Positions 449 through 49,289 of a DNA stretch of 51,154 nt are shown piece by piece. The notes beneath the pieces were generated by a model. That model saw nothing but the letters and a program-made list of their open reading frames with translations. It made no database searches and was not told the origin of the DNA. Position 1 is the first letter of the stretch. Every line of letters begins with the position of its first letter. Origin of the DNA: Escherichia phage damhaus; sequence record NC_049827.1; one strand, 5' to 3'. The translations under genes and the position numbers were made by a program.

Positions 449-816
449 ACTATAACGAGATCGCAAGAATGGCAACAGAAGGAATTAACTTCTTTAGTGA
501 TGGCAATGGTGAGTTTAAGTGCATAACGCAGCGTGGAAGCGTTGAAATCATCGGAGGCGAAGAAGTAGAAAAGCCAGAGATCAGTGTAATGATTAAGGGT
601 TTAATTCGCTCCCCAAAAGTACGCGAGATTGACGGCGAGACAATACGAGTAACCGATAAGTTGGGAGTTTTTAACAACAAGGTTGAAATTAAGAACGGGT
701 ATCATATTGATGTTGATGGTGAATTATATGTTGTAGTTGAAGCAAGACCAATCAGACAAACCAATGTCACTGTTGCTTATCGGCCTATTTTGAGAAGGAT
801 TTCTGTACATGGCTAA
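445..816 (+). CDS. putative head-tail joining protein
   Basis: ATG at 445 overlaps upstream stop (ATGA) with AGGAG RBS; track start 439 is a TTG; position in neck gene block. Confidence 0.5.
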
Positions 817-3075: not shown

Positions 3076-5748
3076 ATGTCAGAACAATACGCAGGCTTGA
3101 CGCTTGGGGTTGACGTTTCTCAACTCAACAATGCTGTAAAGTCTTTGCAGCAATTCAAGAAGGCAAACGACGACGCAAAGGGGAGCGTTGAGAGTTTTGT
3201 TGATTCAGAGGTTGTTGCAAGACAAAGAGCCAAACAACTGGCTGAGGAATTGGCAAAGCAGAAGCAAGAATTTAAAGCAATTCAGTCGGCAATAGATCCG
3301 ACAGCAAGCAAAATGGATAAGTTGCGCCAGGCTGCGACACAGCTTGATGCGCTTTGGAAAAAAGGAATTGTTCCTGATGACACATTCTTTGAATTAGGAT
3401 CAATTCTTGAGACGCAGCAAAATAAACTGATCGCAACTAAAAAGGCGCTAACTGAAGAAGGCCGCGCAGCGCTTGAGGAAGCAAAAAATAAGGCAAGAGC
3501 AGAGGCTGAGGCAAGAAAGTTCATTGCGGCATTGCAGGCGCAAGCTGACGCAGCGGAAAAAACAAAATCAGAGCTTGTAGAAATGAGAGCCGCACAACTT
3601 GGAGTTAGTGCAGAGGCCGCGCCATTTATTGCAAAAATGAAGGAGCAGGAAAAACAAGCCTCAAAACTTGGCGTTTCTATGGGGCAGTACAAGCAAGCAA
3701 TGGCGCAATTGCCAATGCAGATTACTGACGTTGTTACTTCTCTTGCTTCAGGTATGCCAGTATGGATGATCGCAATCCAGCAGGGCGGGCAAATCAAGGA
3801 CTCATTTGGCGGTGTTGCTAACACGTTTAAAGCGCTAATGACATTTGTCACGCCTTTAAGTGTAGGAATTACGGCGCTGACTGGTGCTCTTGGTTATGCT
3901 GCATATAATGCATACAAAGCAAATGCACAACTGAAGGAGATCACAAAAACCGTTCAGGAGGCAACTGGTCTTTCTGGTGATTTTGCGGAGCGGATTGCAA
4001 CTGGAATCCAGGCGCTATCTGACAAGACAGGTGAGAGCGCCGATAATCTGGCAAAGGCATACATAAGCACTAAGGATGGAGCAACCGAGGCCATACAAAA
4101 ACTCGTCGATGTTGGGTTTACCTATGACGAAGCAAAGGTAAAGGTAAACGAATACAAGAATGCATCAAGTTTTGTAAGTCTCAACAATGAGATTGCTGAT
4201 CACAAAAACAAGGTTCTTGAGCTTGGCGATTCGTGGTATGAAGTCTTAAAAGCGAAGAATGATTATGCTTCACCGTCCGGCGGGCTGTTGGGGAAAGAGC
4301 TTGGTTATGTAAATCCTATGTTGCAATTTGCGAAGAACACCTATGAGGATATAGGAAAGATCGTAAAAGATGCGAATAAGGATATGGCGGAACGAGCAGC
4401 ACGCATCGACAGAGAAAATCTTTCCTTAAACAGAGTTCGAGCGGCGCAAGAGGCTTTAAACAAAGCCATAGAGGATCAGAAAAATGTAGCAAGGACAGCA
4501 GACGAAGAGTTGAAAAAACGAGCAGCCGAGAACGTGGAGTTCAGGCGAAAAGAGCTTGAAGAGGCGAAGAAGGCGCAGCAGCAAAAGGAAAAAGTTGGTG
4601 GAGTTGTAAAAGCACCAACAGAGAAGCTTGATAAGGAGCTATATGTTCTCAAAGCGCAACTTGAAACACTAAAAGAGCACAGGACTGTAAATGATGTTAT
4701 TTCACGCCAGAGGCAATCTTTGTGGAGCATTGAAAAGCAGATCCAGATCCTAGAGGAAGCGCAAAGCAAACGTAAGCTGACAAAAGCGGAACAGGCGTTA
4801 CTAAACGAGCAAAAAACAGTTCTTGCTATGGCAAAAGAAAAGGCCGAGATAGGCGATCAGATTGTTTTGCAACAGAGAAAGAACAAGCAATACCAGGAAG
4901 GGCTAAAGTTCATTCAGCAAACTTCAGATGCCATTGATGCTATGAACTTGCGACAGTCTGGAGCTACAGATCTGCAAATCCAGCGAGAGCTTGAATTGAA
5001 AAAGTTGCGAACTGATTATGTTGCTGGCGGAGGTAGTATCGACGATGAAATTTATCAGCAGATGGAAGCAAAGCTGAAGGAGTATTACGCCACTGAGGAT
5101 CAGCTAAGAAATAACTGGATTGCAGGAGCAAAAAACGCATGGGAGGTTTACGGACAAGATGCAATGGATATGTACGGAAACGTGCAAGATATTGCAAGCG
5201 AGGCGCTCAACGGTCTAACCAACCAAATGGCTACATTCCTTGCAACAGGCAAGGCAAACTTTAAGAGCTTCGCAACGTCAATCATCCAAATGATTATCCA
5301 GATGATCACGAAGATGGTTATCTTTAATGCCATATCCGGTGCGGTTGGCGGTGACACTTGGACGATTGGAAGCCTTCTTAAAAATGTTGGATTTGCAACT
5401 GGTGGATACACTGGCGACGGCGGGAAGTATGAGCCAGCAGGTGTTGTCCATAAAGGCGAGTTTGTCATGACGAAGGAGGCCACGAAGCGGATCGGAGTTG
5501 GAAATCTTTACAAAATGATGCGCGGTTATGCAAATGGCGGCGTTGTTGGCGGCACTTCATACACTGGCGGCGGAGTTTCATCTGGAGCAACAAATCTTAA
5601 TATTGGCGGGATCAACGTTGATATTAACAACGGAAGCGATCCGAAAGGGTTGGAGACTGGCGTAAAAATGATTTTCACTGATATGATTAAGCGTTCCTGT
5701 ACGCAGGGTGGGGAAGTTTACGAATTTGTTATGTCTAAGCGGGGGTGA
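3076..5748 (+). CDS. tail tape measure protein
   Basis: 890-aa ORF, long coiled-coil-like charged/Ala-rich central region, glycine-rich C-terminal part; follows chaperone frameshift pair. Confidence 0.85.
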
Positions 5749-13141: not shown

Positions 13142-13196
13142 CTTGGTATCTCCTTCGTTGTTGTTGGTTGCAACTATACACGATCTTACAGCAGGC

Positions 13197-13217
13197 GTTT
13201 AGCAAAAAGTGCTATTC
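13197..13217 (-). promoter_or_regulatory. conserved intergenic box, degenerate copy
   Basis: reverse complement reads GAATAGCACTTTTTGCTAAAC; on the minus strand followed by TATAGT and the leader/RBS of the lipoprotein gene. Confidence 0.5.
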
Positions 13218-13585
13218 TGTTCTTTTTGTTCTCGCGTGTTCTCAAATCTGCGGAGTCTTAAATTTAGCTCAAAAAGTGAACAATAATAGAGAGCAATACA
13301 TACAGATAAATATATATACATACATATAAATCAATAAGTTAGTAGTATATATATTTATGTTTGTTCTTTATTGTTATCTATGTTTTGTGTGATTTTGTGT
13401 GTCTGGTGATTTTTCTGTGATTATGCATGTGTCAGTGGTTATGTGTGCCTATATATCTATATCCGGCGCAAATTGAGGAACAAGAGAACAAAACGACAAC
13501 AAAGATATTTATCAATCACTTACATGTAAGTTTTGTTATCCAAATTGACGAGAACGTTGTTAAAACAGAAAAAACAAAATAACTA

Positions 13586-13613
13586 TTGACTAAACGCATC
13601 AAATAGCTACAAT
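13586..13613 (+). promoter_or_regulatory. sigma70-type promoter (TTGACT-N16-TACAAT)
   Basis: near-consensus -35 and -10 hexamers about 30 nt upstream of the exonuclease start. Confidence 0.6.
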
Positions 13614-13642
13614 GCAGACATACCAACCAATGAGGGCAAATC

Positions 13643-14704
13643 ATGAATAAGTTTATGGCGTACACCAGCGAAGAAATGAGTAATGATCTTTATCACGATC
13701 CAGAAGCGTGGACGGCTGACTATGTTAGTGGATCAAGCCTGGCCGAGATTTACAGCACATGCCCGGCGGCGTGGAAGTTCAAGCCTCGTGACGATAATAG
13801 CAAGGCGCTAGTTTTTGGTACACAGTCGCATACCAACTTTGAAAGCAAGGAGCTTTTCGAAAAAACCTATCGACGCGCGCCAGCGCCAGAAGACTTTAAG
13901 GATCTGATAACTAGCCAAACTGCGCTTGCCGCAAAACTGAAATCATTTGGCCTGAAAGGTACAACCGGAAAGACTTATCCAGACCTTATCAAAATGATGG
14001 TCGATTGCGGAGAAGACCTTAACGTTATGTGGTTGATTGAGATGATCGAAGAAAGCCAGGCCAGAGCCGACGGAGTGCAGCTAATCGACGCTAAAGACTA
14101 CGACGCTTGCGTTGCAATGCGCCAGGTTCTGGAATCAATACCGGAACATAACGCATGTATGAATAGCAAGACAGCACAACGTGAATTATCGTTGTTCGGT
14201 GAAATCAACGGCGTAAAAGTCAAAGTGCGATGCGATCACGTTGACGTAACAAAGAACGTGACAGCAACTCTGATTGATGGTTACGATGAAAAAGGTCAAC
14301 CGATTTGCCGCGATATTATTTATCCAGAGGCCATTGTGATCACAGACTACAAAACCACGATGAGCGCGAATCCGTCTGAGTTTATGCGCCTGGCTTACAA
14401 TCACGGCTATTATTTGAAAATGGCGTTGCAATGTGATTTATTCAGGAAAGCGTATCCAGAAGAAAAGCGACCTATAGTTGTTCGCCTGTTAGCACAGGAG
14501 AAGAAAGAGCCTTATTTGCCGTTGGCTTTCCGCATGAACAACGAGCAATTGAAGATTGGGCGCATTCAGTACATGAGCGTGATTAACCAGTTTGCCATGT
14601 GCCAGCAACATGACGTTTGGCCTTCGTATTCAAACGGTGAGCCGGAGGTTTGTCTTGATACTCCTGATTGGGTGCGACGTCAGTTTAAGCAATATCTTAT
14701 TTAA
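13643..14704 (+). CDS. PD-(D/E)xK recombination exonuclease
   Basis: 353-aa ORF with IVITDYKTT (D-x-K) nuclease motif; first gene of exonuclease / annealase / SSB module. Confidence 0.6.
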   Translation: MNKFMAYTSEEMSNDLYHDPEAWTADYVSGSSLAEIYSTCPAAWKFKPRDDNSKALVFGTQSHTNFESKELFEKTYRRAPAPEDFKDLITSQTALAAKLKSFGLKGTTGKTYPDLIKMMVDCGEDLNVMWLIEMIEESQARADGVQLIDAKDYDACVAMRQVLESIPEHNACMNSKTAQRELSLFGEINGVKVKVRCDHVDVTKNVTATLIDGYDEKGQPICRDIIYPEAIVITDYKTTMSANPSEFMRLAYNHGYYLKMALQCDLFRKAYPEEKRPIVVRLLAQEKKEPYLPLAFRMNNEQLKIGRIQYMSVINQFAMCQQHDVWPSYSNGEPEVCLDTPDWVRRQFKQYLI

Positions 14705-20530: not shown

Positions 20531-21463
20531 TTAGAGAAGAGATTCAGGTTTGTAAACCTTCCTCTCTATCCCTTGCCTGTAATTATCATTAATCGGCATC
20601 ATAATTTCAAGTCCTCTTTCCTCGGCAGCAATGATCGCGTCACGATCTGTGCTCTTACAGACAACTCGCATTCTTCTGTTGCCTTTATACCTGTAAGCTA
20701 CAATCTCAATGTTAGTTGCATCAAAGCAGGCCCAAACCTCCTGACCAGTTGCAAGGTGAATATGTTGCGCATCAATCCAGTCAACGCAAAGATAGATCGT
20801 CTTATCTGTGCTTCCTGTTCTCACAACCGACCCGCGCGTGTATTCCTTTGCGAGAAAAGACTGTTTACCTTCTTCATCAATGAAAAGCACATTGCACATT
20901 TCATCATCAATATCATCGGAATGTACCAGGTAACATGGTAACGCGTGAATGTATCGACCATCTTTAACGCCGCATTCATAATGGCCATCTTCAGGCGGGT
21001 ATATCCCTTCATAGGTGCTTAACGGCGTGCGATCAAATTTTAGTGTTTTTGACATAACGCGCTCGCAGCATTCATGGCTTGCCTGTTTCCCAAACGAATA
21101 ACCAGAATCACGAGATACTCGCTTATTTGCCTTGATCCTATAGTCCTGCGGAACTTTTCCAAGAAAGCGGCCCAAAATATTGATCACTTCGCTGTAAGGT
21201 TCTCCGGTTATCTTCATGATCCAACCAATTCCAGTATCGTTCCCGCACACGTTGCAGATAGCGCCGCCGTCGCCTTTTTTATCTCCAAGTTTATCCGTCC
21301 ATCTGAAGCGATCCTTTCCGCCGCAGTGGGGGCAAGATTGATGCTTGCCGTTAAAAACTTCATTTGGAAGACCGCAAATACTTTGTAGCGCCTCACGCCA
21401 TAATCCCTGCATATATGGGAGAACATCTTCCTTTTGATAAACCATAAAGTTTTCGTTGTTCAT
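20531..21463 (-). CDS. DNA primase (zinc-binding)
   Basis: Start moved to Met35 (GAGGTG RBS); CPHCGGKDRFRW zinc-ribbon motif near the N-terminus. Confidence 0.6.
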   Translation of the reverse strand: MNNENFMVYQKEDVLPYMQGLWREALQSICGLPNEVFNGKHQSCPHCGGKDRFRWTDKLGDKKGDGGAICNVCGNDTGIGWIMKITGEPYSEVINILGRFLGKVPQDYRIKANKRVSRDSGYSFGKQASHECCERVMSKTLKFDRTPLSTYEGIYPPEDGHYECGVKDGRYIHALPCYLVHSDDIDDEMCNVLFIDEEGKQSFLAKEYTRGSVVRTGSTDKTIYLCVDWIDAQHIHLATGQEVWACFDATNIEIVAYRYKGNRRMRVVCKSTDRDAIIAAEERGLEIMMPINDNYRQGIERKVYKPESLL

Positions 21464-21518
21464 ATGCACCTCAAACAAAAAAGCCTGACAGATGATAACA
21501 TCATGCCAGGCATTGTTT

Positions 21519-21992
21519 TTAGCAATTAGTGCTTTCAGGTTTATACAGGAATCCGCCAGGTTCATAATCTGACATTCTTACCACTCGCAACATTTCACGC
21601 TTATCACATCTCTTTGTGAGCGGTTTGCCATTGGAATCAAATCGCAGGTCTGGACGACAAAATGATGCGCGATAACCTTGACAGCCATACTTTTTATAAT
21701 CATTGTGCACCTTTTGAGCGCCAGCGGCTGAAATCATACCGCGAACGCGCCACTGATTTACAGTTTGCTGGCTAACGTTAAGACGTTTTGCCATTGCTGA
21801 TACACTTCCGTAATACTCAATAAGGATGTCAAGGCGCGCTTTTAGTCCGGCGCGAACTTCATCTTTTAAAACATAGTATCCTGTAGGGCGCTTGCGCTTT
21901 TTCTTATCTTTACCCCGTCGAGTTCCGTTGTTGCCATTAATTGTGCGCTTGTCAATCTTGCCAGTTGATACGGCGATCCGCTGTTCTTTCAT
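21519..21992 (-). CDS. HTH-domain DNA-binding protein (putative transcriptional regulator)
   Basis: 157 aa; predicted helix-turn-helix SVSAMAKRLNVSQQTVNQW; very basic N-terminus; divergent from helicase gene. Confidence 0.55.
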   Translation of the reverse strand: MKEQRIAVSTGKIDKRTINGNNGTRRGKDKKKRKRPTGYYVLKDEVRAGLKARLDILIEYYGSVSAMAKRLNVSQQTVNQWRVRGMISAAGAQKVHNDYKKYGCQGYRASFCRPDLRFDSNGKPLTKRCDKREMLRVVRMSDYEPGGFLYKPESTNC

Positions 21993-22081
21993 TATTCATT
22001 CTCCAATAGCATTTTTTGTTAAACGATGATTTAATGATTGTGTATTATACACGCCAAATGGCATTACTCAAAGGTTTTAGA

Positions 22082-24127
22082 ATGATTCCAAACATTGAAA
22101 AGCAAATATCAGCACTTGGTGAAGCGGTAATTAAATCCATTCAGGAGCGATTCACTGTTGGCGATATTGTGCCTTACCCTTACCAGTGCGTTGCATACGC
22201 TGAGATCGCAAAGCGTATGAAAAATTATGAGCATCCATTCTTTGTTAAAGCGTCGGTATCGGCTGGAAAAACATTGATGTTTGCAATGGTTGCTCACCAG
22301 TGCCGGAAAATGGGCTTGAAAATGATGGTCCTTGCTCGCCAGGCTGAGATTGTGGATCAGGATTCTGAAGAGATAACAAATCTTGGCGTGCCGAACTCCA
22401 TCTATTGTGCAGGACTGAAGACAAAAAGCGCATACTTTCCGATCGTTGTTGGTTCTGAGGGAACTGTAGTTAATGGACTGTTTAAAGCGCTTGGCGACTA
22501 TGTTCCTCACGTTATCGGGATTGACGAGTGTCACCAGGTGGATTGGGAAGACCTTGCCGACGCCATAGAGAAAGATGAGTCATTTTTACAAATGACGACG
22601 AAGAAAGGCGAAAAAGTACCAAATCCAGATTATGACATAACAAAGGGAAGCAGGAACAGAAATACAGAGTTCCTGATTGGTGAGGATGGCTTGCCAATGG
22701 AGGGAACAGGCCGCACGCAATACACTGTCATTATCATGGAAATGATGCGACGTTGCAGGAAAGCATACGGTCATGAACTGCGCATCTTTGGTATGACTGG
22801 ATCGGAGTTTCGCGGCGTAGTTCCAATACTGGTAGAAGATAAAAAGCAGAAAGGATTTTGGCGTGAACAGGTTACTAATATTGACACCAACTACCTGATC
22901 AAGTTCGGTTCTGTTGTTCCGACTAATTTTGGCGACGTTGGCGATCTTGGGTATGACCTTTCAGAGTTTGAGGCATCCAGTGAGGATGGCGTTGCAGACT
23001 TTGACGCTAAAACGCTTCGTAGGATGGAACAAAAAATTCATGAAGAAGCGACCATGACAAAGCGCATCATGGCGAAAGTGCACGAGATCTGTAAAAACCG
23101 TAACGGTGTACTTGTGACATGTGCAGGCGAAAGGCACTGTAAAGAGGCAGCGGCAGCATTGCCGCCTGGAACGACTTACAGGATCATTACTGGTAAGACT
23201 GGCGATAACCAGCGCAAGGAGTGGTTGAAAGAAGCATACGAGGGAAAGGTTAAATACATCTTCCAGGTGCAGGCGCTAACTACTGGCGTTAACGTGCCGT
23301 TTTGGGATACGTCTGTTATTCTGCGTAAGATTGGATCTCTTACGTTGCTGATTCAGCTTTTAGGTCGCGGAATGCGACTACTTAAGAAGTGGCATAAGGA
23401 GCAAGGATTCCAGAAGGATGATCATCTAGTCATGGATTTTTCAGGAACGATGGACGAGCTAGGGGAGCTTTATTTTGATCCGATACTGGAACAGGCGCAG
23501 CACCAGAAGCGATTTAGGAACGGTAAAGATCCGAAGCCTTGTCCTGTTTGCGGAACTCTTAACAGCTATTATGCTCGTCGTTGTATGAACGTAGATGAAA
23601 ACGGCAACAGATGCGAGTGGTTCTTTAAATTCAGGACATGTGATGATCAGATTGACCCGCGCACTAAAAAGATTATTCATCGCGGTTGCGGAACGAAGAA
23701 TGATATTGCGGCCAGGGTATGCAGACATTGCGACATGTCATTGATTGACCCTAACGAGAAGTTAAGCGGAAAGCACTACACAAAAAACGACTGGTTCCAG
23801 GTGCAATCTTTCGCGGTTGACATGACGAAAAACCAGAAAGGGATAATATTTAATTATGAGCTTTCCGATGGCATAGATACTTTCAAGGCGAGAGAGATAT
23901 TTTTCCCTGAATCTGAAAGCCAAATTTGTCGCGCAAAATGGCGAAGCGTTGCTCTTAAGCACATACCAGATCGCCGTGTCGCTGGCATGGTCGCGAGCTA
24001 TCGTAATGCACGTAAAATCATGCAATATGTGAATCACATTATGCCACCATCGCGTGTGACTCACCGCAAGACGAGCAAGGGCGAAGATAATTTGTATAAG
24101 AAGGAATTTAATTATGGCAATGACTGA
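22082..24127 (+). CDS. SF2 DNA helicase with C-terminal zinc-finger region
   Basis: Walker A (SAGKT) and DECH box (GIDECHQ); C-terminal CxxC clusters; start at Met23. Confidence 0.75.
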   Translation: MIPNIEKQISALGEAVIKSIQERFTVGDIVPYPYQCVAYAEIAKRMKNYEHPFFVKASVSAGKTLMFAMVAHQCRKMGLKMMVLARQAEIVDQDSEEITNLGVPNSIYCAGLKTKSAYFPIVVGSEGTVVNGLFKALGDYVPHVIGIDECHQVDWEDLADAIEKDESFLQMTTKKGEKVPNPDYDITKGSRNRNTEFLIGEDGLPMEGTGRTQYTVIIMEMMRRCRKAYGHELRIFGMTGSEFRGVVPILVEDKKQKGFWREQVTNIDTNYLIKFGSVVPTNFGDVGDLGYDLSEFEASSEDGVADFDAKTLRRMEQKIHEEATMTKRIMAKVHEICKNRNGVLVTCAGERHCKEAAAALPPGTTYRIITGKTGDNQRKEWLKEAYEGKVKYIFQVQALTTGVNVPFWDTSVILRKIGSLTLLIQLLGRGMRLLKKWHKEQGFQKDDHLVMDFSGTMDELGELYFDPILEQAQHQKRFRNGKDPKPCPVCGTLNSYYARRCMNVDENGNRCEWFFKFRTCDDQIDPRTKKIIHRGCGTKNDIAARVCRHCDMSLIDPNEKLSGKHYTKNDWFQVQSFAVDMTKNQKGIIFNYELSDGIDTFKAREIFFPESESQICRAKWRSVALKHIPDRRVAGMVASYRNARKIMQYVNHIMPPSRVTHRKTSKGEDNLYKKEFNYGND

Positions 24128-26133: not shown

Positions 26134-27267
26134 TTGATGAAGCAAATCAAAATCACAGATGAACAATTTATCAATGAGCGCAAGCAGGGAAAGACATATA
26201 AGCAGATCGCTAATGAGTATGGCATGAACGTTCGAAGCATTGAGCGACGTGCGGCACGATTAGCAAAGCAAGGTAAAGTTACAACCATCGGATCGCCTGG
26301 TTTTGGTGTTACTGGAGAATCAAAGCTAATTGATAAAGATGGCAATGTTGTTATGACATGGATTAAGACAAGCAAGGACCGCGAACAGTTAGAAGCATTA
26401 ATGCAGGCCGCTATGGATGCATTTAGCGAAGAAGTTCCGCGACTTGATCCACAGCCAGAATCACAAAAGGATTATAGCGAGACGTTATCACTGTATCCGA
26501 TATTTGACATGCACTTGGGCGCAATGGCGCATAAGCATGAATGCGGCGAGAATTGGGATACAGCAACAGCAGAGCGCGTAATGAATAATTTCATTGATTA
26601 TTCCATCCAGTGCGCGCCGGATAGTGAAAAGGCTGTTTTGCTGATTGGTGGTGATATGCTTCACAGCGACGGACTGGAAGCGGTAACTCCTGCAAGCGGT
26701 CACGTATTAGATCAAGATAGTCGATATGCAAAACTTGTTTATGTTGCTATCCGGTCGGTTCGTCGAGCAATTACAAAGCTGTTATCAAAACACAAAAACG
26801 TCGAGATCCAAATCATTGAAGGCAACCACGACCAAAGCGGTATGATCTGGTTGCGCGCAGCAATGGCGGCAGCATATGAGAATGAGCCGCGAGTGCATGT
26901 TGATGTGTCTCCGCGAGTAGTTCATCACACACAATATGGCAAAACGTTCCTGGCATACCATCACGGGCATACTATCCGCAAACCTGAAACATTGCTCATG
27001 ATGTGCGCGGCAGACTGGCGCGAAGATTTCGGCAATTCAAAAATGATGTATGCTCACGTAGGGCACTGGCATCATCAGACAGTAACTGAAACAAGCCTTG
27101 GCATTGTTGAAGTGCATAGCACTATGGCGGCAAAAGATGCATATGCGGCGCGCGGTGGATGGCGTTCTCGTCGCCGTGCGGCTGTTATTGTTTACGATAA
27201 AGAATACGGCGAAGTCGGGCGATTTATGCATTATCCAGAAATGGCTGATCGAACTTTTAATTATTAA
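26134..27267 (+). CDS. HTH-domain protein fused to calcineurin-like metallophosphoesterase domain
   Basis: N-terminal HTH (TYKQIANEYGMNVRSIERR); phosphoesterase signatures D-x-H, GGDMLHSD, GNHD, GHWHH. Confidence 0.55.
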   Translation: MMKQIKITDEQFINERKQGKTYKQIANEYGMNVRSIERRAARLAKQGKVTTIGSPGFGVTGESKLIDKDGNVVMTWIKTSKDREQLEALMQAAMDAFSEEVPRLDPQPESQKDYSETLSLYPIFDMHLGAMAHKHECGENWDTATAERVMNNFIDYSIQCAPDSEKAVLLIGGDMLHSDGLEAVTPASGHVLDQDSRYAKLVYVAIRSVRRAITKLLSKHKNVEIQIIEGNHDQSGMIWLRAAMAAAYENEPRVHVDVSPRVVHHTQYGKTFLAYHHGHTIRKPETLLMMCAADWREDFGNSKMMYAHVGHWHHQTVTETSLGIVEVHSTMAAKDAYAARGGWRSRRRAAVIVYDKEYGEVGRFMHYPEMADRTFNY

Positions 27268-27295
27268 AATATCAATATAAATCATCAATTTAATT

Positions 27296-29325: not shown

Positions 29326-30909
29326 TTACCCTAGCAATGTTGGATTTACGAAAACAACGCCATTAATCACACAAATATAATTTCTTTCCTCAATCATCGG
29401 AAGCAGTTGCGTTTCCATGCGCTTCATTACTCCAGCCTGACCAACAAAAGGCTTAACTTTTCGTGCAGCCTCATATATGGCGCGCACATTCAAGATTCCC
29501 TTATTAGCCTTTCCGTGTCGAGTGATGATCTCGATTAGTTTACCCATTTCAGCATCATCACCAGCATAGCCAGAAGCGTTTGCGGCGCTAATGTATGTTT
29601 TGCTCAACTCGCTAAACATCAGCAATGCTTCCTGAACGGTTTCAACCTCAATCTCTTTCGACTTCTGAGGGTATCCACCAGGATTAAACCAATTGCGGAT
29701 AGTGTGCAAAACCGAAGCAATCCTGATCACCTGCTTATCCATTTTGCCAAGCGCACCTCGCAGCATTGTATGCGAATACTTTCCGCCATCAGCAAGGTGC
29801 GGTTCCATCTCCTGACGAGCCATGTTAAGCACTCGCATTGCGGATTTGCTGATCTTAAGCTGGATGTTTGATTCGCTCATGATGTTATGGATCAGCTTAA
29901 AATATTGGCTTTTCAGTTCTCCATCAACAGGCTCATAAGTCGAATCACCGTTATCATCAACAAATTTTCGACGACCTAAAAATGATTCTTCACGCACAAG
30001 CAAATAACGCTCACTCACACCGATACCGCGCGATCCTGCATCCATGATGGCATTAATTGTTTCATCCTGGGCAATTACTGCCATGCAGCCAAGAGCTTTA
30101 AAACTCATGTTATTGTCTGCGTTTGCGCGAGCTATAGAAACATGACCGTGATCCCATGCTTTTAGCACAAGTTCGCTGTTTGTTTTGCGTTCGCTATTGG
30201 CATATGTCAGACCTAAAAGGCTGTTAATACTCGTTGCCTCGTCTGAAATTACAGCAAAGTTACCCTGGCGATTGTTGATTCTTGCAAGTCCTTCCGGCGT
30301 GGTATCGGACACAGGGAAAACAATGTCACACATCTTTTCAAGTTTTTCTTCAAGATCTTCTTTCTCTTGGTATAGCGATTCCATATCAGCGCCAGATCGC
30401 TCGCTTTTCATCTCTTTTGCAAGACCTGCCAACTTTGCCTGAATCTTTTTTCGTTCCTTCTTTCGCTGATCATTAATTCTTTCTACTTCAGCAACCATAG
30501 GAGCAAGTGCCAGGCTGTTAACGGCAGATTTACCAGTTGAAGGAGGCTGGCTTGTGACAACATAAAGAGCTGTCGGCTGATCCGTTCCGTGATACTCAAC
30601 CGTGAAGCGTCCAAGCATTGCAGCAGACACGCAGCCGATAAAATGCATATATGCCGATGATTCAGGGAATTGAACAGAGCGAGCAATGTTGCGAGCCAAC
30701 TTACCAACAACATCAACATCATTGCCAAGAGAAATTACAGGGTAGCGATCGTTTCCGTTATTGACATCATTAACCTCACCCCAAAAGCTGGACGATTGAC
30801 GGTATCCGTTAGCCTGAATGGACACGCGCACCGGAGACAATCCTTGTGCATCAGCTAATTCGATAATTTGTTTTGGTGTTAGTTTATTTGTTTCAAACGA
30901 AAAATTCAT
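29326..30909 (-). CDS. putative replication-associated P-loop protein (DUF3987-like)
   Basis: Start at Met19 with AAAGGAG RBS; 527 aa; Walker-A-like PSTGKSAV; family assignment from memory of motif context. Confidence 0.5.
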   Translation of the reverse strand: MNFSFETNKLTPKQIIELADAQGLSPVRVSIQANGYRQSSSFWGEVNDVNNGNDRYPVISLGNDVDVVGKLARNIARSVQFPESSAYMHFIGCVSAAMLGRFTVEYHGTDQPTALYVVTSQPPSTGKSAVNSLALAPMVAEVERINDQRKKERKKIQAKLAGLAKEMKSERSGADMESLYQEKEDLEEKLEKMCDIVFPVSDTTPEGLARINNRQGNFAVISDEATSINSLLGLTYANSERKTNSELVLKAWDHGHVSIARANADNNMSFKALGCMAVIAQDETINAIMDAGSRGIGVSERYLLVREESFLGRRKFVDDNGDSTYEPVDGELKSQYFKLIHNIMSESNIQLKISKSAMRVLNMARQEMEPHLADGGKYSHTMLRGALGKMDKQVIRIASVLHTIRNWFNPGGYPQKSKEIEVETVQEALLMFSELSKTYISAANASGYAGDDAEMGKLIEIITRHGKANKGILNVRAIYEAARKVKPFVGQAGVMKRMETQLLPMIEERNYICVINGVVFVNPTLLG

Positions 30910-30960
30910 TGATGATAACTCCTTTTTGATGCGGCAATAATACCGCACCAATGCTACCCG

Positions 30961-30982
30961 CATTTAACAAAAAATGCTATTT
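30961..30982 (-). promoter_or_regulatory. conserved intergenic box copy (one mismatch)
   Basis: minus strand AAATAGCATTTTTTGTTAAA overlapping the TAG stop of gene 30977-31198; followed by hairpin containing TATTAT. Confidence 0.6.
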
Positions 30983-34220: not shown

Positions 34221-34460
34221 TTAACCATGTTTAACGGCATCCAGAACATCACAGGATTCGTTAATAAATTTTGCCATGCGCTTATCATCACCAACAGGTA
34301 TTAGCGCGTTACACTCGCGTTCGCTACTGAACACTGTCACTTTATGGAATGATGCGAAAGGCATCGACGGGAACTCGACTGTTTGCCTCAAGATCCGCAA
34401 CCCCATCTTTTTGGCCCTTACCTGGGCCTCTGCAAGTTCAAAATCCACTTCGCTAATCAT
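34221..34460 (-). CDS. hypothetical protein
   Basis: 79-aa ORF with AAGGAG RBS. Confidence 0.55.
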   Translation of the reverse strand: MISEVDFELAEAQVRAKKMGLRILRQTVEFPSMPFASFHKVTVFSSERECNALIPVGDDKRMAKFINESCDVLDAVKHG

Positions 34461-34729
34461 TTCTTGATCTCCTTAGCAATAAACTTCAATACCTTGCGCA
34501 AAAATACCTCGTTGTTGATGGTCGCTGGCAATTCTTCTTTCACTTCTTGCGGCAGGTAAATATTGCCGTGCCAGGTTAGGCAATCGTAGTTGATACGATA
34601 AGAGCAAAGCCACTCGCAATCGTTATCAGCTTCCCAAATGCAAAGCTGCATTACGTCGCCAAAATCTTCAACAGTCAGTTCCAGACCATGACGCTTTGCA
34701 AAGTTGAAGGTGGTTTTGCTGATGTTCAT
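34457..34729 (-). CDS. hypothetical protein (first gene of minus-strand block)
   Basis: 90-aa ORF; GGAGA RBS; Cys-rich (CxxxxxxC...C...C). Confidence 0.55.
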   Translation of the reverse strand: MNISKTTFNFAKRHGLELTVEDFGDVMQLCIWEADNDCEWLCSYRINYDCLTWHGNIYLPQEVKEELPATINNEVFLRKVLKFIAKEIKK

Positions 34730-34790
34730 TGCTATCTCCTGATTGGTATCTCGTTTCGATGAGATAACTATACCAGGTTATTCCGATCTT

Positions 34791-34812
34791 GTTTTAACAA
34801 AAAGTGCTATTT
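34791..34812 (-). promoter_or_regulatory. conserved intergenic box copy at head of minus-strand block
   Basis: minus strand AAATAGCACTTTTTGTTAAAAC followed by TATAGT and the CATCGAAACGAGAT leader. Confidence 0.7.
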
Positions 34813-35345
34813 CTCAACTGGCGATTATTCCATCTATTCCATTAATCAGGAATAACAGGAATAACTCATTCGAGATCACCTGGATTGTGAGATCTTGAGT
34901 TTGATCAATTTTAATCAGGTGATTAACTTTTTGTGTGGAGGGGATAGAGAAACGCGGTCCTCTTGCGTCCTTTCCGGCAATCCTGGCGCGCGCATCTGTT
35001 ATCTTCTGTTATCGCTGTTATGCGTGTTATTCCGGCGTGGAATCGCATAACAAAAAATAACAAGAGAAATCCATATAACATACTAAAAAATAAGGATTAT
35101 TTATTTATATGTATCTATAAATTACTATCTGTTGTGCGTGTTATGTGGTCATATTGATGCCTGATGTATTTTTGGTGATTGTATGTGGTTGTGTGTTGGC
35201 AGGTATGTATATATGGGGCGGTGGCGTATCCGCGCATTTTTAGATAACACGCAAAAACAACATTGATTTATAAGAAAAAAAACACAAATCCTGTTGTGTT
35301 CTGAAAAGACAACATAGGAAAACCGCCAATAACAATAAAAAACAG

Positions 35346-35375
35346 TTGACACACCAGGTGACGGTAAATGATAAT
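35346..35375 (+). promoter_or_regulatory. sigma70 promoter (TTGACA-N18-GATAAT)
   Basis: consensus -35 and near-consensus -10 about 30 nt upstream of the first plus-strand early gene. Confidence 0.65.
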
Positions 35376-35405
35376 GCAGCCACTGAATCACGAGGGGGAT
35401 AAAGC

Positions 35406-35876
35406 ATGAGTGAATCTGTATTTACAAATGAGCTTCGCAAGGTTGCAATTGCTCTAGCCACTGGAGTGCATGAATCTATCCAGATACCTGAAAGATGGGT
35501 AAGGCAGCACCTGGAGGGCAAGAAGTCAGCCAGCAACGCCGGATCATATCTGCGTCAGATTATGGGGCGCGTTCCAGAAGTGGCGGAGAAGGGGAGAGTT
35601 TCAGTCTCAAAGAAACCTTACGGCCCTGATAGCGAATATTTCGGAGAAAATTACTTTGATGTGGCGATTGTTAGTGCTCCGAATCGCAGGGTGTACAACA
35701 AGGCCGCGCTTGAGAAGGCTGTAGCGAAAGCAAAACGCCAGGTTGCTGAGTCGATGCTTAAAGTCTCACCAAACCTAGCGAACTACTCGCCAGATGAATA
35801 TGAAACACTTGCTAAGGCGATCGCAGACTTTCACGCGATCATTAAAGAAACATATCTTAACGATGAGGATCAATAA
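35406..35876 (+). CDS. hypothetical protein (first plus-strand early gene)
   Basis: 156-aa ORF with GAGGGGGA RBS. Confidence 0.6.
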   Translation: MSESVFTNELRKVAIALATGVHESIQIPERWVRQHLEGKKSASNAGSYLRQIMGRVPEVAEKGRVSVSKKPYGPDSEYFGENYFDVAIVSAPNRRVYNKAALEKAVAKAKRQVAESMLKVSPNLANYSPDEYETLAKAIADFHAIIKETYLNDEDQ

Positions 35877-43131: not shown

Positions 43132-43365
43132 ATGTTGAACTTAATTTCTGCTTTTGTTATTGGTTTTGTTTTTGCTGTAATTATTCTGTTTGTCGCATCG
43201 GAAAAGATTTGCAAATTTCTTGCTAAGAACGGGAAGTTTGCAAGCGTGACATGGAATAACAAGATGCATCGATGGGATGTTCGCGGTCACTATCTGACGA
43301 TTGGTAGCAAAATCCATCAGCACCTGAAGAATCAAGAAGATGAAAAAGTAAAATACAAGTATTGA
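43132..43365 (+). CDS. small membrane protein
   Basis: 77 aa with N-terminal transmembrane helix; AGGGAAG RBS. Confidence 0.55.
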   Translation: MLNLISAFVIGFVFAVIILFVASEKICKFLAKNGKFASVTWNNKMHRWDVRGHYLTIGSKIHQHLKNQEDEKVKYKY

Positions 43366-43371
43366 CCAACT

Positions 43372-43396
43372 ACCCGCCAAATGGCGGGTTTTTTAT
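43372..43396 (+). terminator. rho-independent terminator
   Basis: CCCGCC-AAAT-GGCGGG hairpin followed by TTTTTTATT. Confidence 0.7.
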
Positions 43397-43445
43397 TGTT
43401 TGCAATTTGTCTATAATGAGGCTTTGTTATAAAGGAGGGCGCATT

Positions 43446-43967
43446 ATGGCTAAAAACGTTGAGCCAGCAGTAAAGGCTTGCAATTTTAAAAAACTATATA
43501 ATAAGCAATATGGCGATATTGCAAAAATGACAAAGGCGCACAAGTACACGCCGGAACAGGTGTTTGATCTGGCTGTACGTTACTTTACGTGGGCCGAGGA
43601 AAACCATATACAGGCTGCGGAAACTGCATCCTTTCAGGGTGATGTATACGAAAGCAAGGTTCACAAGCCGCGCGTGTTCACCTTAAATGGATTCCGCTTA
43701 TTCGCTGGCCTTTCTGCTTCCGTGCTTGAAAAATGGCGACGCGAGCCAGGATTCAGCGATGTTATGGACTTTATCGACGGCGTTGTTTACGAGCAAAAAT
43801 TCCAGCTTGCTGCAAACAATATTGTTAACGCCGGATTCATTGGTAAAGAGATCGGCATTGAAAAGCCAGCCACCGTTACCATTGAGAATAACACAAGCGC
43901 CAGCGTTGACGCTGTAACGGCGGAGGAAGTCAAAGAGGCGGTAATTGACATTCTGGAGAAGATATAA
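43446..43967 (+). CDS. terS: terminase small subunit
   Basis: 173 aa from Met29 of track ORF (AAAGGAGGG RBS), immediately upstream of and overlapping the large terminase gene. Confidence 0.6.
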   Translation: MAKNVEPAVKACNFKKLYNKQYGDIAKMTKAHKYTPEQVFDLAVRYFTWAEENHIQAAETASFQGDVYESKVHKPRVFTLNGFRLFAGLSASVLEKWRREPGFSDVMDFIDGVVYEQKFQLAANNIVNAGFIGKEIGIEKPATVTIENNTSASVDAVTAEEVKEAVIDILEKI

Positions 43968-47651: not shown

Positions 47652-48764
47652 ATGAAGGCAAAACAAAGATTTGATAGCGTCCAAGTTAAGGCGCATTTTG
47701 ATGATAATGGCTTTTTAGTGGATCGCCCAATTGTGGCGCGAATTGGCTTGCAGGAGTATCACACGCCGTATGGAATCAGACGAGAGTTCAGACCAGCGTC
47801 AGAGGTGTTCAAAGCTGATTCCCTTGCCACGTTCGCAGGCAAGCCGATCACTATCGGTCACGTCACGGTAACACCGGACAATGCGGATCAGGTTGTTGTT
47901 GGTTCATGCGCTGGCGCTGGTGTTCCTAATGGGATTGGCGTTGAAGTTCCGTTAAGCATTTACTCAAAGCGAGCAATTGAGAGTGCAAAAAAGAAAGATA
48001 CGGCTGAAATTTCAGTTGGTTACACATCAATTGATATTGATAAACCAGGATGGGGCAACAATAAAACTGGTGATTACTTATTTGATGAAGACCTTAAAGA
48101 AGACTGGAAGCCTGATTCTCCTGATTGGGTCAAATTTGACGCCATTCAGACGAATATCCGTGTCAACCACATTGCGCTTGTCTTTCGTGGTCGTGCTGGC
48201 ATTGCCAAATTAAATCTTGATAGTGAACAAGATTTTCCGTATAGTGACGAGGTTCTAAATGACAAAGGAGATGAGGAAATGACAGTGAAAATTAAACTTG
48301 ATGGCGCGGTAGAATTTGATGTTCCAAAGGCCGTTGCTGATCATATTGAGGCGTTAAAGGCAGATGCAAAAGCTGCAACCGAAAAAGCTGATGGCCTTGA
48401 GGCCGAGCGCGACGCCCTGAAAACTAAAGTCGATGGAATTCCGGCGCAGATTGCAGAAGCTGTTAAGAAGGCAAAGACTGACGCAGAAGAACACGCCAAG
48501 CTGGTTGCAGATGCAACTGAAATTGGCATCAAGTGTGACGGCTTGGACGCTAAAGCGATCAAGGTTGCTTACGTCAAAGAAGTCACTGGCGCTGATATTT
48601 CAGAAAAAGCCGATGCATATATTGAAACAGCTTTTGACCTTGCGAAGCAGTCTGATAAAATGGCGGCGCAGCGTAAATCTGTTAAGGGCGATTCTTTCGA
48701 ATCTGGCAAGAGTGAAAAAACCGACTCCCTTGATCCTACTGCGCGTTTGAAAAAACTTAAATAA
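47652..48764 (+). CDS. putative scaffolding protein / prohead protease
   Basis: 370 aa; C-terminal half charged and helical (repetitive K/A/E/D); position between head morphogenesis and capsid genes. Confidence 0.5.
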   Translation: MKAKQRFDSVQVKAHFDDNGFLVDRPIVARIGLQEYHTPYGIRREFRPASEVFKADSLATFAGKPITIGHVTVTPDNADQVVVGSCAGAGVPNGIGVEVPLSIYSKRAIESAKKKDTAEISVGYTSIDIDKPGWGNNKTGDYLFDEDLKEDWKPDSPDWVKFDAIQTNIRVNHIALVFRGRAGIAKLNLDSEQDFPYSDEVLNDKGDEEMTVKIKLDGAVEFDVPKAVADHIEALKADAKAATEKADGLEAERDALKTKVDGIPAQIAEAVKKAKTDAEEHAKLVADATEIGIKCDGLDAKAIKVAYVKEVTGADISEKADAYIETAFDLAKQSDKMAAQRKSVKGDSFESGKSEKTDSLDPTARLKKLK

Positions 48765-48776
48765 GGAGAAATAAAC

Positions 48777-49289
48777 ATGGCTACAATTGGAGCAAGCTAC
48801 TTTGCTGTAATGTCTCGTGCGTTACCTGGTCAGGTTTCTGACACTTCGGCTTATAATATTGATGGCGCTTGTGTTCTTGAGAATGCGGCAGGCAATCAGA
48901 ATCAGTCTGTTTTTGTTGGTGTGGCGGTCCAGCATGGCGGCGTTGACGCTATGGGCAATAAGCTAATTAAGCCGATGGCGGCAAGCGGCAAGGCTTACGG
49001 CGTTGCAATTCGATCTCACTTTCAGACAACTTCGTCTGACGGTCGAATGATTTATGAATCTGGCGGCGGAATCAACGTAATGACTGAAGGGCGTGTTTGG
49101 ATGTTGGCTAAAGACGCCTCCGCGCCAGCGTTCGGCACTACAATCAAACTGTCTGACGATGGTCAGGTTGATACCGGGTCTGGCACTATCGAAACAAACT
49201 GGATCGCGACTGGTGATTTCACCAAGTTTCAAGACTTGAAGCTGGTAGAGGTTCAGGTGCAAAAAGTTCCGGCAGTTTCAGCAGGTTAA
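48777..49289 (+). CDS. putative capsid decoration / structural protein
   Basis: 170-aa ORF with GGAGA RBS upstream of major capsid gene; paralog of next ORF. Confidence 0.5.
   Translation: MATIGASYFAVMSRALPGQVSDTSAYNIDGACVLENAAGNQNQSVFVGVAVQHGGVDAMGNKLIKPMAASGKAYGVAIRSHFQTTSSDGRMIYESGGGINVMTEGRVWMLAKDASAPAFGTTIKLSDDGQVDTGSGTIETNWIATGDFTKFQDLKLVEVQVQKVPAVSAG

Follow-up and report, generated by a model that had tools for sequence, protein, structure and literature searches.

The present analysis concerns a non-coding gap in the genome of Escherichia phage damhaus (NC_049827.1; the whole stretch analyzed, 51,154 nt, is called the window) and, within that gap, the repeated hexamers (iterons) TGTTAT/ATAACA at 34996-35345. 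The closest described systems are replication origins. The origins of staphylococcal pathogenicity islands (SaPIs) contain 6-12 iterons of five or six nucleotides, divided equally between the two sides of an AT-rich centre and oppositely oriented; they are recognised by a self-loading SF3/MCM-type Rep helicase, which works with a primase, through its C-terminal winged helix (PMC9371898). In the record of phage P4, an 8-bp iteron (TGTTCACC/A) is found at 9-11-bp spacing and in both orientations in the separate ori and crr elements. Bacillus phage SPP1 has two origins, oriL and oriR, made up of direct repeats together with an AT-rich unwinding element (PMC6316719). For the T1-like phages, no paper mapping or proposing a replication origin was found in the literature, and the re-annotation of phage TLS reported no iterons anywhere in the TLS genome and left its origin unassigned (PMC11447400). 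T1 is one of Delbruck's seven classic coliphages, and members of its family, the Drexlerviridae, are frequent both in collections for phage therapy and as contaminants of laboratories.

The likeness to the SaPI origins lies in the hexamer iterons, present in both orientations around an AT-rich centre (here as at least 11 copies of TGTTAT/ATAACA), and in the presence of an MCM-like helicase with a C-terminal winged helix plus a separate primase. The resemblance of this helicase to the SaPI Reps appears to be one of architecture, not of sequence homology. In contrast to the SaPIs, this phage has two modules per genome (module 1, at 13144-13642, and module 2, at 34996-35345), extra TCCGCA boxes and a GT-rich spacer. 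As in P4, two separated cis elements share an iteron, and the primase is homologous to the primase domain of the P4 alpha protein; moreover, TGTTCAC serves as an iteron in many related Tempevirinae modules, and relatives carry TGTTCAC(A/C). However, damhaus itself uses TGTTAT/TGTTCT instead of the P4 word, with only the TGTT core in common, and its helicase is a separate protein in which no similarity to the alpha helicase domain was found, so that a relationship between the two was rejected. The P4 ori also lacks a comparable TA-rich core between its arrays and a flanking consensus early promoter. SPP1 offers the parallel of a virulent, pac-type siphovirus with two similar origins, one of them in a long intergenic region bracketed by transcription signals. 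Its later, recombination-dependent concatemers are formed via an exonuclease, an annealase and SSB (PMC6316719), and damhaus encodes RecE-, Erf- and SSB-type genes directly after module 1. SPP1 differs in relying on gp38, a protein dedicated to origin binding, together with a loader and a DnaB-type helicase, in the location of oriL inside gene 38, and in having no sequence relation to the modules described here.

This kind of element is well known; distinctive are the two copies per genome, the conserved extra boxes, the strand-biased tract and the fusion of one copy to a probable pac region. We give about even chances to the proposal that 34996-35345 is a replication origin, located between divergent promoters and one of two in the genome (the other at 13195-13600). 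With a named candidate initiator, both intervals are precise, testable origin candidates. Phage engineering (minimal genomes, phagemids) would benefit from knowing the origin, pac region and early promoters, and such knowledge would aid the understanding of generalized transduction and of the 21-nt repeats in their context.

Repeat statistics and the non-coding gap

TGTTAT/ATAACA was found in seven non-overlapping copies within 90 bp (34997-35080), the largest cluster of any hexamer on either strand across the window. As a null model, 100 first-order Markov simulations of the window were run; the per-run maximum cluster of any hexamer was 3-5, and none of the 100 simulations reached seven copies in 90 bp. 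Additional copies are located at 34852, 35139, 35244 and 35329. TGTT triplets with a 9-10-bp period occur in the whole window only at 13218, 13362, 34997 and 35007, all on the + strand (four observed vs. 0.08 expected; simulated maximum 1). The direct CTGTTAT repeats and inverted ATAACA copies named in the original prediction were thus borne out: their positions were found, and their cluster exceeds anything seen in the simulations.

Duplex stability was calculated with nearest-neighbour parameters in segments of 40, 60 and 100 bp. At all three sizes, the two least stable segments of the window are 35068-35127, in module 2, and 13297-13356, in module 1 (z of 4.3-5.3 for the two TA-rich cores). 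The module-2 core is flanked on its left by four forward and three inverted iterons, and on its right by TGTTGT/TGTTAT (35130, 35139) and ATAACA/ACAACA (35244, 35257). The core sequence, AAATAAGGATTATTTATTTATATGTATCTATA, is nearly invariant across Hanrivervirus and Warwickvirus, whereas its flanks are ca. 70% identical. The third least stable segment of the window, 27236-27295 (z of 3.4-4.2), directly follows the exonuclease gene; iterons were not noticed in it. DnaA boxes (TTATNCACA) were absent from the gap even when one mismatch was allowed, and no exact match was present in the whole window; a DnaA-dependent origin was accordingly rejected.

The phage is T1-like (Drexlerviridae; Tempevirinae; Hanrivervirus), and the gene order of the window matches that of T1. 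Over the gap and the sequence on either side of it, Shigella phage pSf-1, Escherichia phages vojen and egaa, and further Hanrivervirus phages show 90-92% identity; for the window, the identity to pSf-1 is ca. 92%. A gap of about 590 bp without an open reading frame (ORF) had been described; the non-coding character was upheld, but the extent is slightly larger (34730-35405, 676 bp). To its left, small genes form a leftward block with 34457-34729 (- strand) as its last member; to its right, a rightward block ca. 8 kb long begins at the ATG at 35406 and runs up to the terminase genes. The small ORFs in the gap (80 aa or less, including the pSf-1 “gp32”) showed no protein conservation in divergent relatives and were rejected as genes, whereas both genes flanking the gap are conserved as proteins in those relatives. 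The view of the gap as a non-coding switch between divergent gene blocks is supported. A scan of the gap against Rfam 15 returned no family (two sub-threshold chance hits, each far under the gathering score). The folding z-scores of the whole region (-2.2 for DNA, + strand; -3.2 for RNA, - strand) reflect the inverted repeats; they are not evidence for a structured RNA, and that candidate was rejected.

The predicted promoter at the right edge of the gap agrees with the sigma-70 consensus at 11 of 12 positions, has an 18-bp spacer and has no second sigma-70-type match beside it in 34400-35700. Its TTGAC is unchanged in all of seven aligned relatives, and GATAAT is kept wherever the relatives' sequence covers the -10 region. 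The TTGACA-N18-GATAAT promoter proposed earlier is thus present and conserved. It is homologous to P01 of TLS (523..549), as the module-1 promoter is to P51; P01 and P51 are two of only three sigma-70 promoters listed for TLS, all of them predictions only (PMC11447400). Because the repeats, the cluster statistics, the conserved promoter and the non-coding status all hold, the initial observation was considered confirmed.

Judged by its sequence, the gap is a composite of a leftward promoter cassette, a stretch homologous to the position assigned to the T1 and TLS genome ends (pac), the iteron module and the early rightward promoter. The single switch region first envisaged did not take account of this composite nature, and its left third (ca. 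34813-34990) falls outside the repeated module. Gap DNA was matched in 357 Drexlerviridae records, in many of which the stretch 34730-34812 is matched as well. An IMG/VR search with the 156-aa downstream protein alone returned only three close loci. Twenty GenBank records labelled “UNVERIFIED Campylobacter phage” (MG065636-MG065687) also match the gap (81-91% identity among the matches listed); the one examined, C4, is classified as Hanrivervirus, and the host label looks doubtful.

Anatomy of module 2 and its paralogue

The coordinates of the features are collected in Table 1. The hairpin of box 1 has the sequence TTCCGGCGTGGAA, and the flanking TGTTATGCG and CGCATAACA form a perfect 9-bp dyad around it. 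Box 1 is the local form of a family box (YTCCGCA / TCCGGCG) that is kept in modules whose flanks have diverged; the second box reads TATCCGCGCA. The spacer behind array 2 reaches 83% G+T per 30 nt on the + strand, and an array with such a spacer comes after the TA-rich core in every module examined. The last iteron word ends 12 nt ahead of the -35 hexamer. A strict consensus site for integration host factor (IHF) was not found in module 2 of this phage; module 1 has such sites, as does module 2 in several relatives. Also pertinent to the boxes is a side observation on P4, in which the spacer between the two 120-bp crr repeats (L096, ca. 4452-4461) holds CCTCCGCACT; the module-2 TCCGCA box of one Hanrivervirus locus (L019) has exactly this sequence, which could be due to chance.

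Table 1. Positions of the features discussed (strand as noted; “.” where no strand applies)
Feature	Position	Strand	Details
Iteron array 1	34996-35030	+	CTGTTAT at 34996, 35006 and 35015, GTGTTAT at 35024; period 10/9/9 bp
Box 1, TTCCGGCGTGGAATCGC	35030-35046	.	Small hairpin, centre of first dyad unit
Inverted iterons	35047-35080	-	ATAACA at 35047, 35057 and 35075
TA-rich core, candidate DNA unwinding element	35068-35127	.	Nearest-neighbour stability, conservation
Iteron array 2	35129-35225	+	CTGTTGT at 35129, GTGTTAT at 35138, then G+T-rich spacer
Box 2, GTATCCGCGCATT, and inverted iterons	35226-35262	-	ATAACA at 35244, ACAACA at 35257
A+C-rich stretch upstream of promoter	35263-35345	.	TGTTGT 35292, TGTTCT 35297, ACAACA 35309, ATAACA 35329
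Early sigma-70 promoter (predicted)	35346-35405	+	TTGACA (35346-35351)-N18-GATAAT (35370-35375), leader, Shine-Dalgarno GAGGGGGA, ATG 35406
Paralogous module 1	13144-13642	.	Other divergent gap, between cor and recE; element order of module 2
Module-2-only insert, candidate pac-proximal region	34813-34993	.	No counterpart in module 1
Leftward promoter cassette of gene 34457-34729	34730-34812	-	21-nt repeat, -10, leader, Shine-Dalgarno
Candidate initiator, DUF3987 helicase	29326-30963	-	C-terminal winged helix (residues ~466-545)
Primase	20531-21565	-	Homologous to N-terminal primase domain of P4 alpha (BLASTP E 5e-13 over 250 aa)
Cro/YdaS-like helix-turn-helix regulator	21519-21992		phrog_2856; 60% identical to T1 ST23
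21-nt repeat copies	22006, 24530, 25550, 36133, 36597, 37602, 39969, 41313	+	
21-nt repeat copies	2394, 13215, 28813, 30980, 31656, 33043, 33934, 34810, 49806	-	

The left part of module 1 holds a 21-nt repeat (- strand, 13195-13215), three TGTTCT words at a 10-bp period (13218-13245) and a box. In its centre are the TA-rich core, with a strict IHF consensus at 13329, and a second TGTT array (13362). The right part comprises a GT-rich spacer, TATATCCGGCGCA, GAACA repeats and the promoter TTGACT-N17-TACAAT, followed by recE at 13643. The strict IHF consensus sites at 13329 and 13510 are two of only eight in the window. The two modules cannot be aligned as nucleotide sequences (with blastn, the best local match covers 40 nt with 82% identity), so they are not a recent duplication. 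Of the similarity to 13290-13470 reported in the original prediction, the architectural part therefore stands; an alignment of the modules at the nucleotide level was rejected.

The common order is array, box, inverted array, TA core, array, GT spacer, box, inverted array and TTGAC promoter. Both damhaus modules show it, as do T1 and diverse Drexlerviridae loci from IMG/VR. The family comparison comprised 13 diverse IMG/VR loci for module 2 and 11 for module 1, in which the order, the boxes, the TA core and the TTGAC promoter are kept. The core takes the form ...ATTGAAAAATAAGGATTATTTATTTATAT... or ...AAATCAAT[AT]AGTTAGTTATATATAT..., the second of which is a perfect IHF consensus. Throughout the family, both modules contain TATATAT...TCCG(G)CG(C/T)A and then nAACA(G) repeats. 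A phased YGTT triplet is located at the same relative position in 12 of the 13 Tempevirinae module-2 versions. The repeat word varies within the Tempevirinae (TGTTAT, TGTTCT, TGTTCA, TGTTTC or TGTTCC); both modules of one genome use TGTTnn words. T1 has both modules in the same order, but its module 1 uses TGTAAC and its module 2 CGATTA(A/C) together with a small number of TGTAAC copies; in a Webervirus-like locus the layout is kept with GGGGA-type words. The word thus drifts while the phasing and the order stay, as would be expected of sites that co-evolve with a phage protein. As a separate observation, mEp021-like temperate phages (L051-L085, e.g. L056 16240-16490), which have an exonuclease 65-68% identical to that of damhaus but neither the DUF3987 helicase nor the 21-nt repeats, contain ACACGAT(A/G) repeats similar to the T1 module-2 repeat ACACGATTA.

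Candidate initiator and competing readings of the repeats

The full-length model of the 29326-30963 helicase (predicted local distance difference test score of 88) was closest to the subunits of MCM2-7 and archaeal MCM; a comparison of its sequence with PDB chains gave no match. In every relative outside the near-identical loci, the winged helix diverges more than the ATPase core (identities of 48% vs. 61% in T1 and of 43% vs. 70% in the Webervirus-like loci). The primase also matches Zn_Ribbon_Prim and phrog_510. Two helix-turn-helix (HTH) proteins had been proposed as binders at first. One of them, 21519-21992, was indeed a regulator; the other, 26134-27267, proved to be a DNA-repair exonuclease with an N-terminal HTH (residues ca. 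8-67), which bears a weak similarity to sigma-70 region 4 and to D5-like regulators. We regard the MCM-like helicase as a better candidate for the binder than either.

The earlier statement that iterons next to an AT-rich tract are typical of an origin or a regulator site fits the least stable core, the iterons on both of its sides, the second module and the winged-helix helicase. Sequence anatomy, statistics, conservation, the paralogy of the two modules and the protein folds are direct observations, from which we infer the function; we also count in favour of an origin that the gap lacks DnaA boxes, an Rfam match and coding sequence. Binding, melting and initiation at the modules would take the following course. 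The winged helix of the helicase would bind the 9-10-bp-phased TGTT(A/C)T iterons in both orientations and on both sides of the core. Once loaded, the helicase would melt the TA-rich core, the least stable DNA of the genome, and the P4-alpha-like primase would then prime synthesis. The module would be situated between outward promoters, namely the 21-nt-repeat cassette leftward and TTGACA-N18-GATAAT rightward; thus, early transcription should feed negative supercoiling into the core and aid its opening (the twin-domain effect).

A wider arrangement can be put forward only tentatively: T1-like phages may have two paralogous, promoter-flanked origins ca. 21 kb apart, comparable to P4 ori and crr, both read by the MCM-like helicase through its winged helix and one of them fused to the pac region. 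As part of that arrangement, and with the same hesitation, the TCCGCA boxes and the strand-biased GT tract may bind further factors. If it is true, replication initiation, early transcription and the first packaging cut would be organised in one 680-bp control region.

Several points weigh against an origin at the modules. The weightiest are the word difference in T1, the shortness of YGTT, the generic winged-helix matches and phylogenetic confounding. The two T1 modules differ in their dominant word (TGTAAC vs. CGATTA), so a single binder is not an easy explanation for both. Only the 4-bp core YGTT is constant in the Tempevirinae arrays, a low specificity for one protein. The winged-helix matches were generic and included protein-protein interaction domains of cullins and kleisins. 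The winged helix and the repeat word covary in the expected direction, but across three clades among which everything differs; because it is confounded by phylogeny, this covariation was not used as proof. In addition, a SaPI ori lies immediately downstream of rep, whereas here the helicase gene is ca. 4 kb from module 2 and ca. 16 kb from module 1. A homologue of the origin-binding domain of P4 alpha was sought in this phage by tblastn and profile comparison, and none was found. Literature searches found no experimental origin mapping for any T1-like phage. Finally, GC skew flips at the gap, yet it tracks the gene strand throughout the window; since it follows gene orientation everywhere, the flip is uninformative and was rejected as evidence for an origin.

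The best-surviving alternative, although an unlikely one, is that the repeats serve the early promoters as an array of operator or enhancer sites. A regulator from the phage, or a nucleoid protein of the host, would bind the TGTT repeats around a flexible TA-rich core, and DNA looping would switch the early promoters (35346 and ca. 13586), perhaps with the leftward cassettes; replication would start elsewhere or by recombination. The Cro/YdaS-like HTH protein, which is conserved, is one candidate for the regulator. Only three sigma-70 promoters are predicted in TLS, and each module lies directly upstream of the counterpart of one of them, but the third such promoter region (21993-22081) has no module of this kind. 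Proximity can be argued in both directions: an iteron-like word (35329) is within 12 nt of the -35 hexamer, the three CGATTAACA repeats of T1 end ca. 28 nt upstream of theirs, and array 1 abuts the 21-nt repeat cassette in module 1 and in T1 module 2, whereas the main arrays are 270-350 bp away from the promoter. The IHF consensus sites of module 1 and of several module-2 relatives are in keeping with looping. Cro-like HTH dimers normally read palindromes, not direct hexamers phased at 9-10 bp as found here. An operator also leaves unexplained why the cores are the least stable of the genome and why the GT tract is strand-asymmetric. The operator and origin proposals are not exclusive, as origin iterons often regulate promoters too.

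It is improbable that the small terminase subunit recognises the TGTTAT/ATAACA arrays, cuts ca. 60-120 bp to their left and packages rightward, in the manner of SPP1 pacL/pacR or P1 pac. P1 pac consists of 4+3 hexamers, and the 4+3 hexamers around a central spacer in module 2 resemble it; the small subunit, encoded at 43362-43967, is P22 gp3-like. Position 1 of the T1 RefSeq record, the start of an annotated 2800-bp terminal repeat, falls in the stretch homologous to the gap just left of array 1, as does position 1 of TLS, whose pac fragment was restriction-mapped (PMC11447400). The TLS record starts 138 nt to the right of the outer 21-nt repeat and ca. 120 nt to the left of the TLS iteron array, and the SU57 authors place the genome end in the same untranslated region. 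The T1 and TLS ends map to ca. 34880-34940 of the window, left of the iterons; the precision of these assignments is low, as the refinement of the TLS position relied solely on a 6-nt likeness to the pac of P22 (PMC11447400). The starts of the haarsle, G29-2, PHB17 and JMPW2 records also lie in the gap; they were rejected as physical ends and are not independent evidence, because the authors oriented these genomes on published relatives. Module 1 makes the terminase explanation less likely: the interval 13144-13642 has the same iteron/TA-core architecture, yet no pac is reported for it, and in T1 a single site serves as the start of packaging. The T1 and TLS ends align with the very part that module 1 lacks, and on that ground the pac region is tentatively assigned to 34813-34990, where it probably lies, rather than to the iterons. 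The original prediction had passed over this correspondence of its left third with the published ends.

Least credible of all is a host response regulator of the ArcA/PhoB type that binds the repeats and couples early phage transcription or replication to host physiology: the CTGTTAT-type word, head-to-tail four times, is like the half-sites of ArcA (TGTTA) and PhoB (CTGTCAT), but these need an 11-bp period, no TGTTA pair at 11 bp exists anywhere in the window (only 9-10 bp), so that the spacing test failed, and related phages of the same hosts use TGTTCA, TGTTTC or TGTTCC, not TGTTA.

The candidate pac-proximal stretch and the 21-nt repeat cassettes

The module-2-only insert contains TATTCC/GGAATA dyads (34826-34863), a GATT/GATC-rich stretch (34874-34930), a G-rich box (GGAGGGGATAGAG, 34938-34950) and a GC-rich patch (34951-34993). 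The five GGAATA/TATTCC copies are the second strongest hexamer cluster of the window. A GATC cluster (34874-34903) was considered as a Dam-regulated pac or ori signal and rejected as not significant, because three GATC in 60 bp occur at six places in the window. The TATTCC/GGAATA dyads, situated just upstream of the leftward cassette, are common to Hanrivervirus, T1 (ca. 48755-48800) and the Webervirus-like locus L089 (18855-18885), the last two with TTATTCC dyads; Warwickvirus has TAATC repeats in their place, and Tlsvirus has GACCGATTGGTC dyads. Such a mosaic could identify the protein that binds the dyads via covariation.

At its left edge, the gap has a single copy of the 21-nt repeat (aaATAGCACnnnTTGnTAAAA) of TLS and the T1-like phages (PMC11447400), part of a promoter cassette that the first description had missed. 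The copy here, AAATAGCACTTTTTGTTAAAA, is read on the - strand from 34812 to 34792. It is followed by an extended -10 element, TGGTATAGT, from 34775 to 34767 (TATAGT with an upstream TG, 22 nt after TTGTTA) and by the conserved leader CATCGAAACGA.

In the window as a whole, the repeat (ATAGCAC-N3-TTGnTAAAA) has 17 copies, nearly all with a fixed cassette layout. Behind the repeat is a copy-specific, GC-rich dyad of ca. 18 nt, the sequence of which varies while its symmetry is usually kept. Downstream of these are a -10-like hexamer exactly 22 nt past TTGnTA, the leader tCATCGAAACGA, a Shine-Dalgarno sequence and the ATG. From this layout, the cassettes look like a class of activator-dependent promoters without a -35 element; the function of the 21-nt repeat is listed as an open question in the TLS paper (PMC11447400). 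At 22016-22081, the listed TTG start of the SF2 helicase is probably too early, as the T1 protein aligns with it only from residue 23 onward (ATG 22082). With the ATG at 22082 as the start, an 89-bp divergent promoter region would be shared with the regulator gene.

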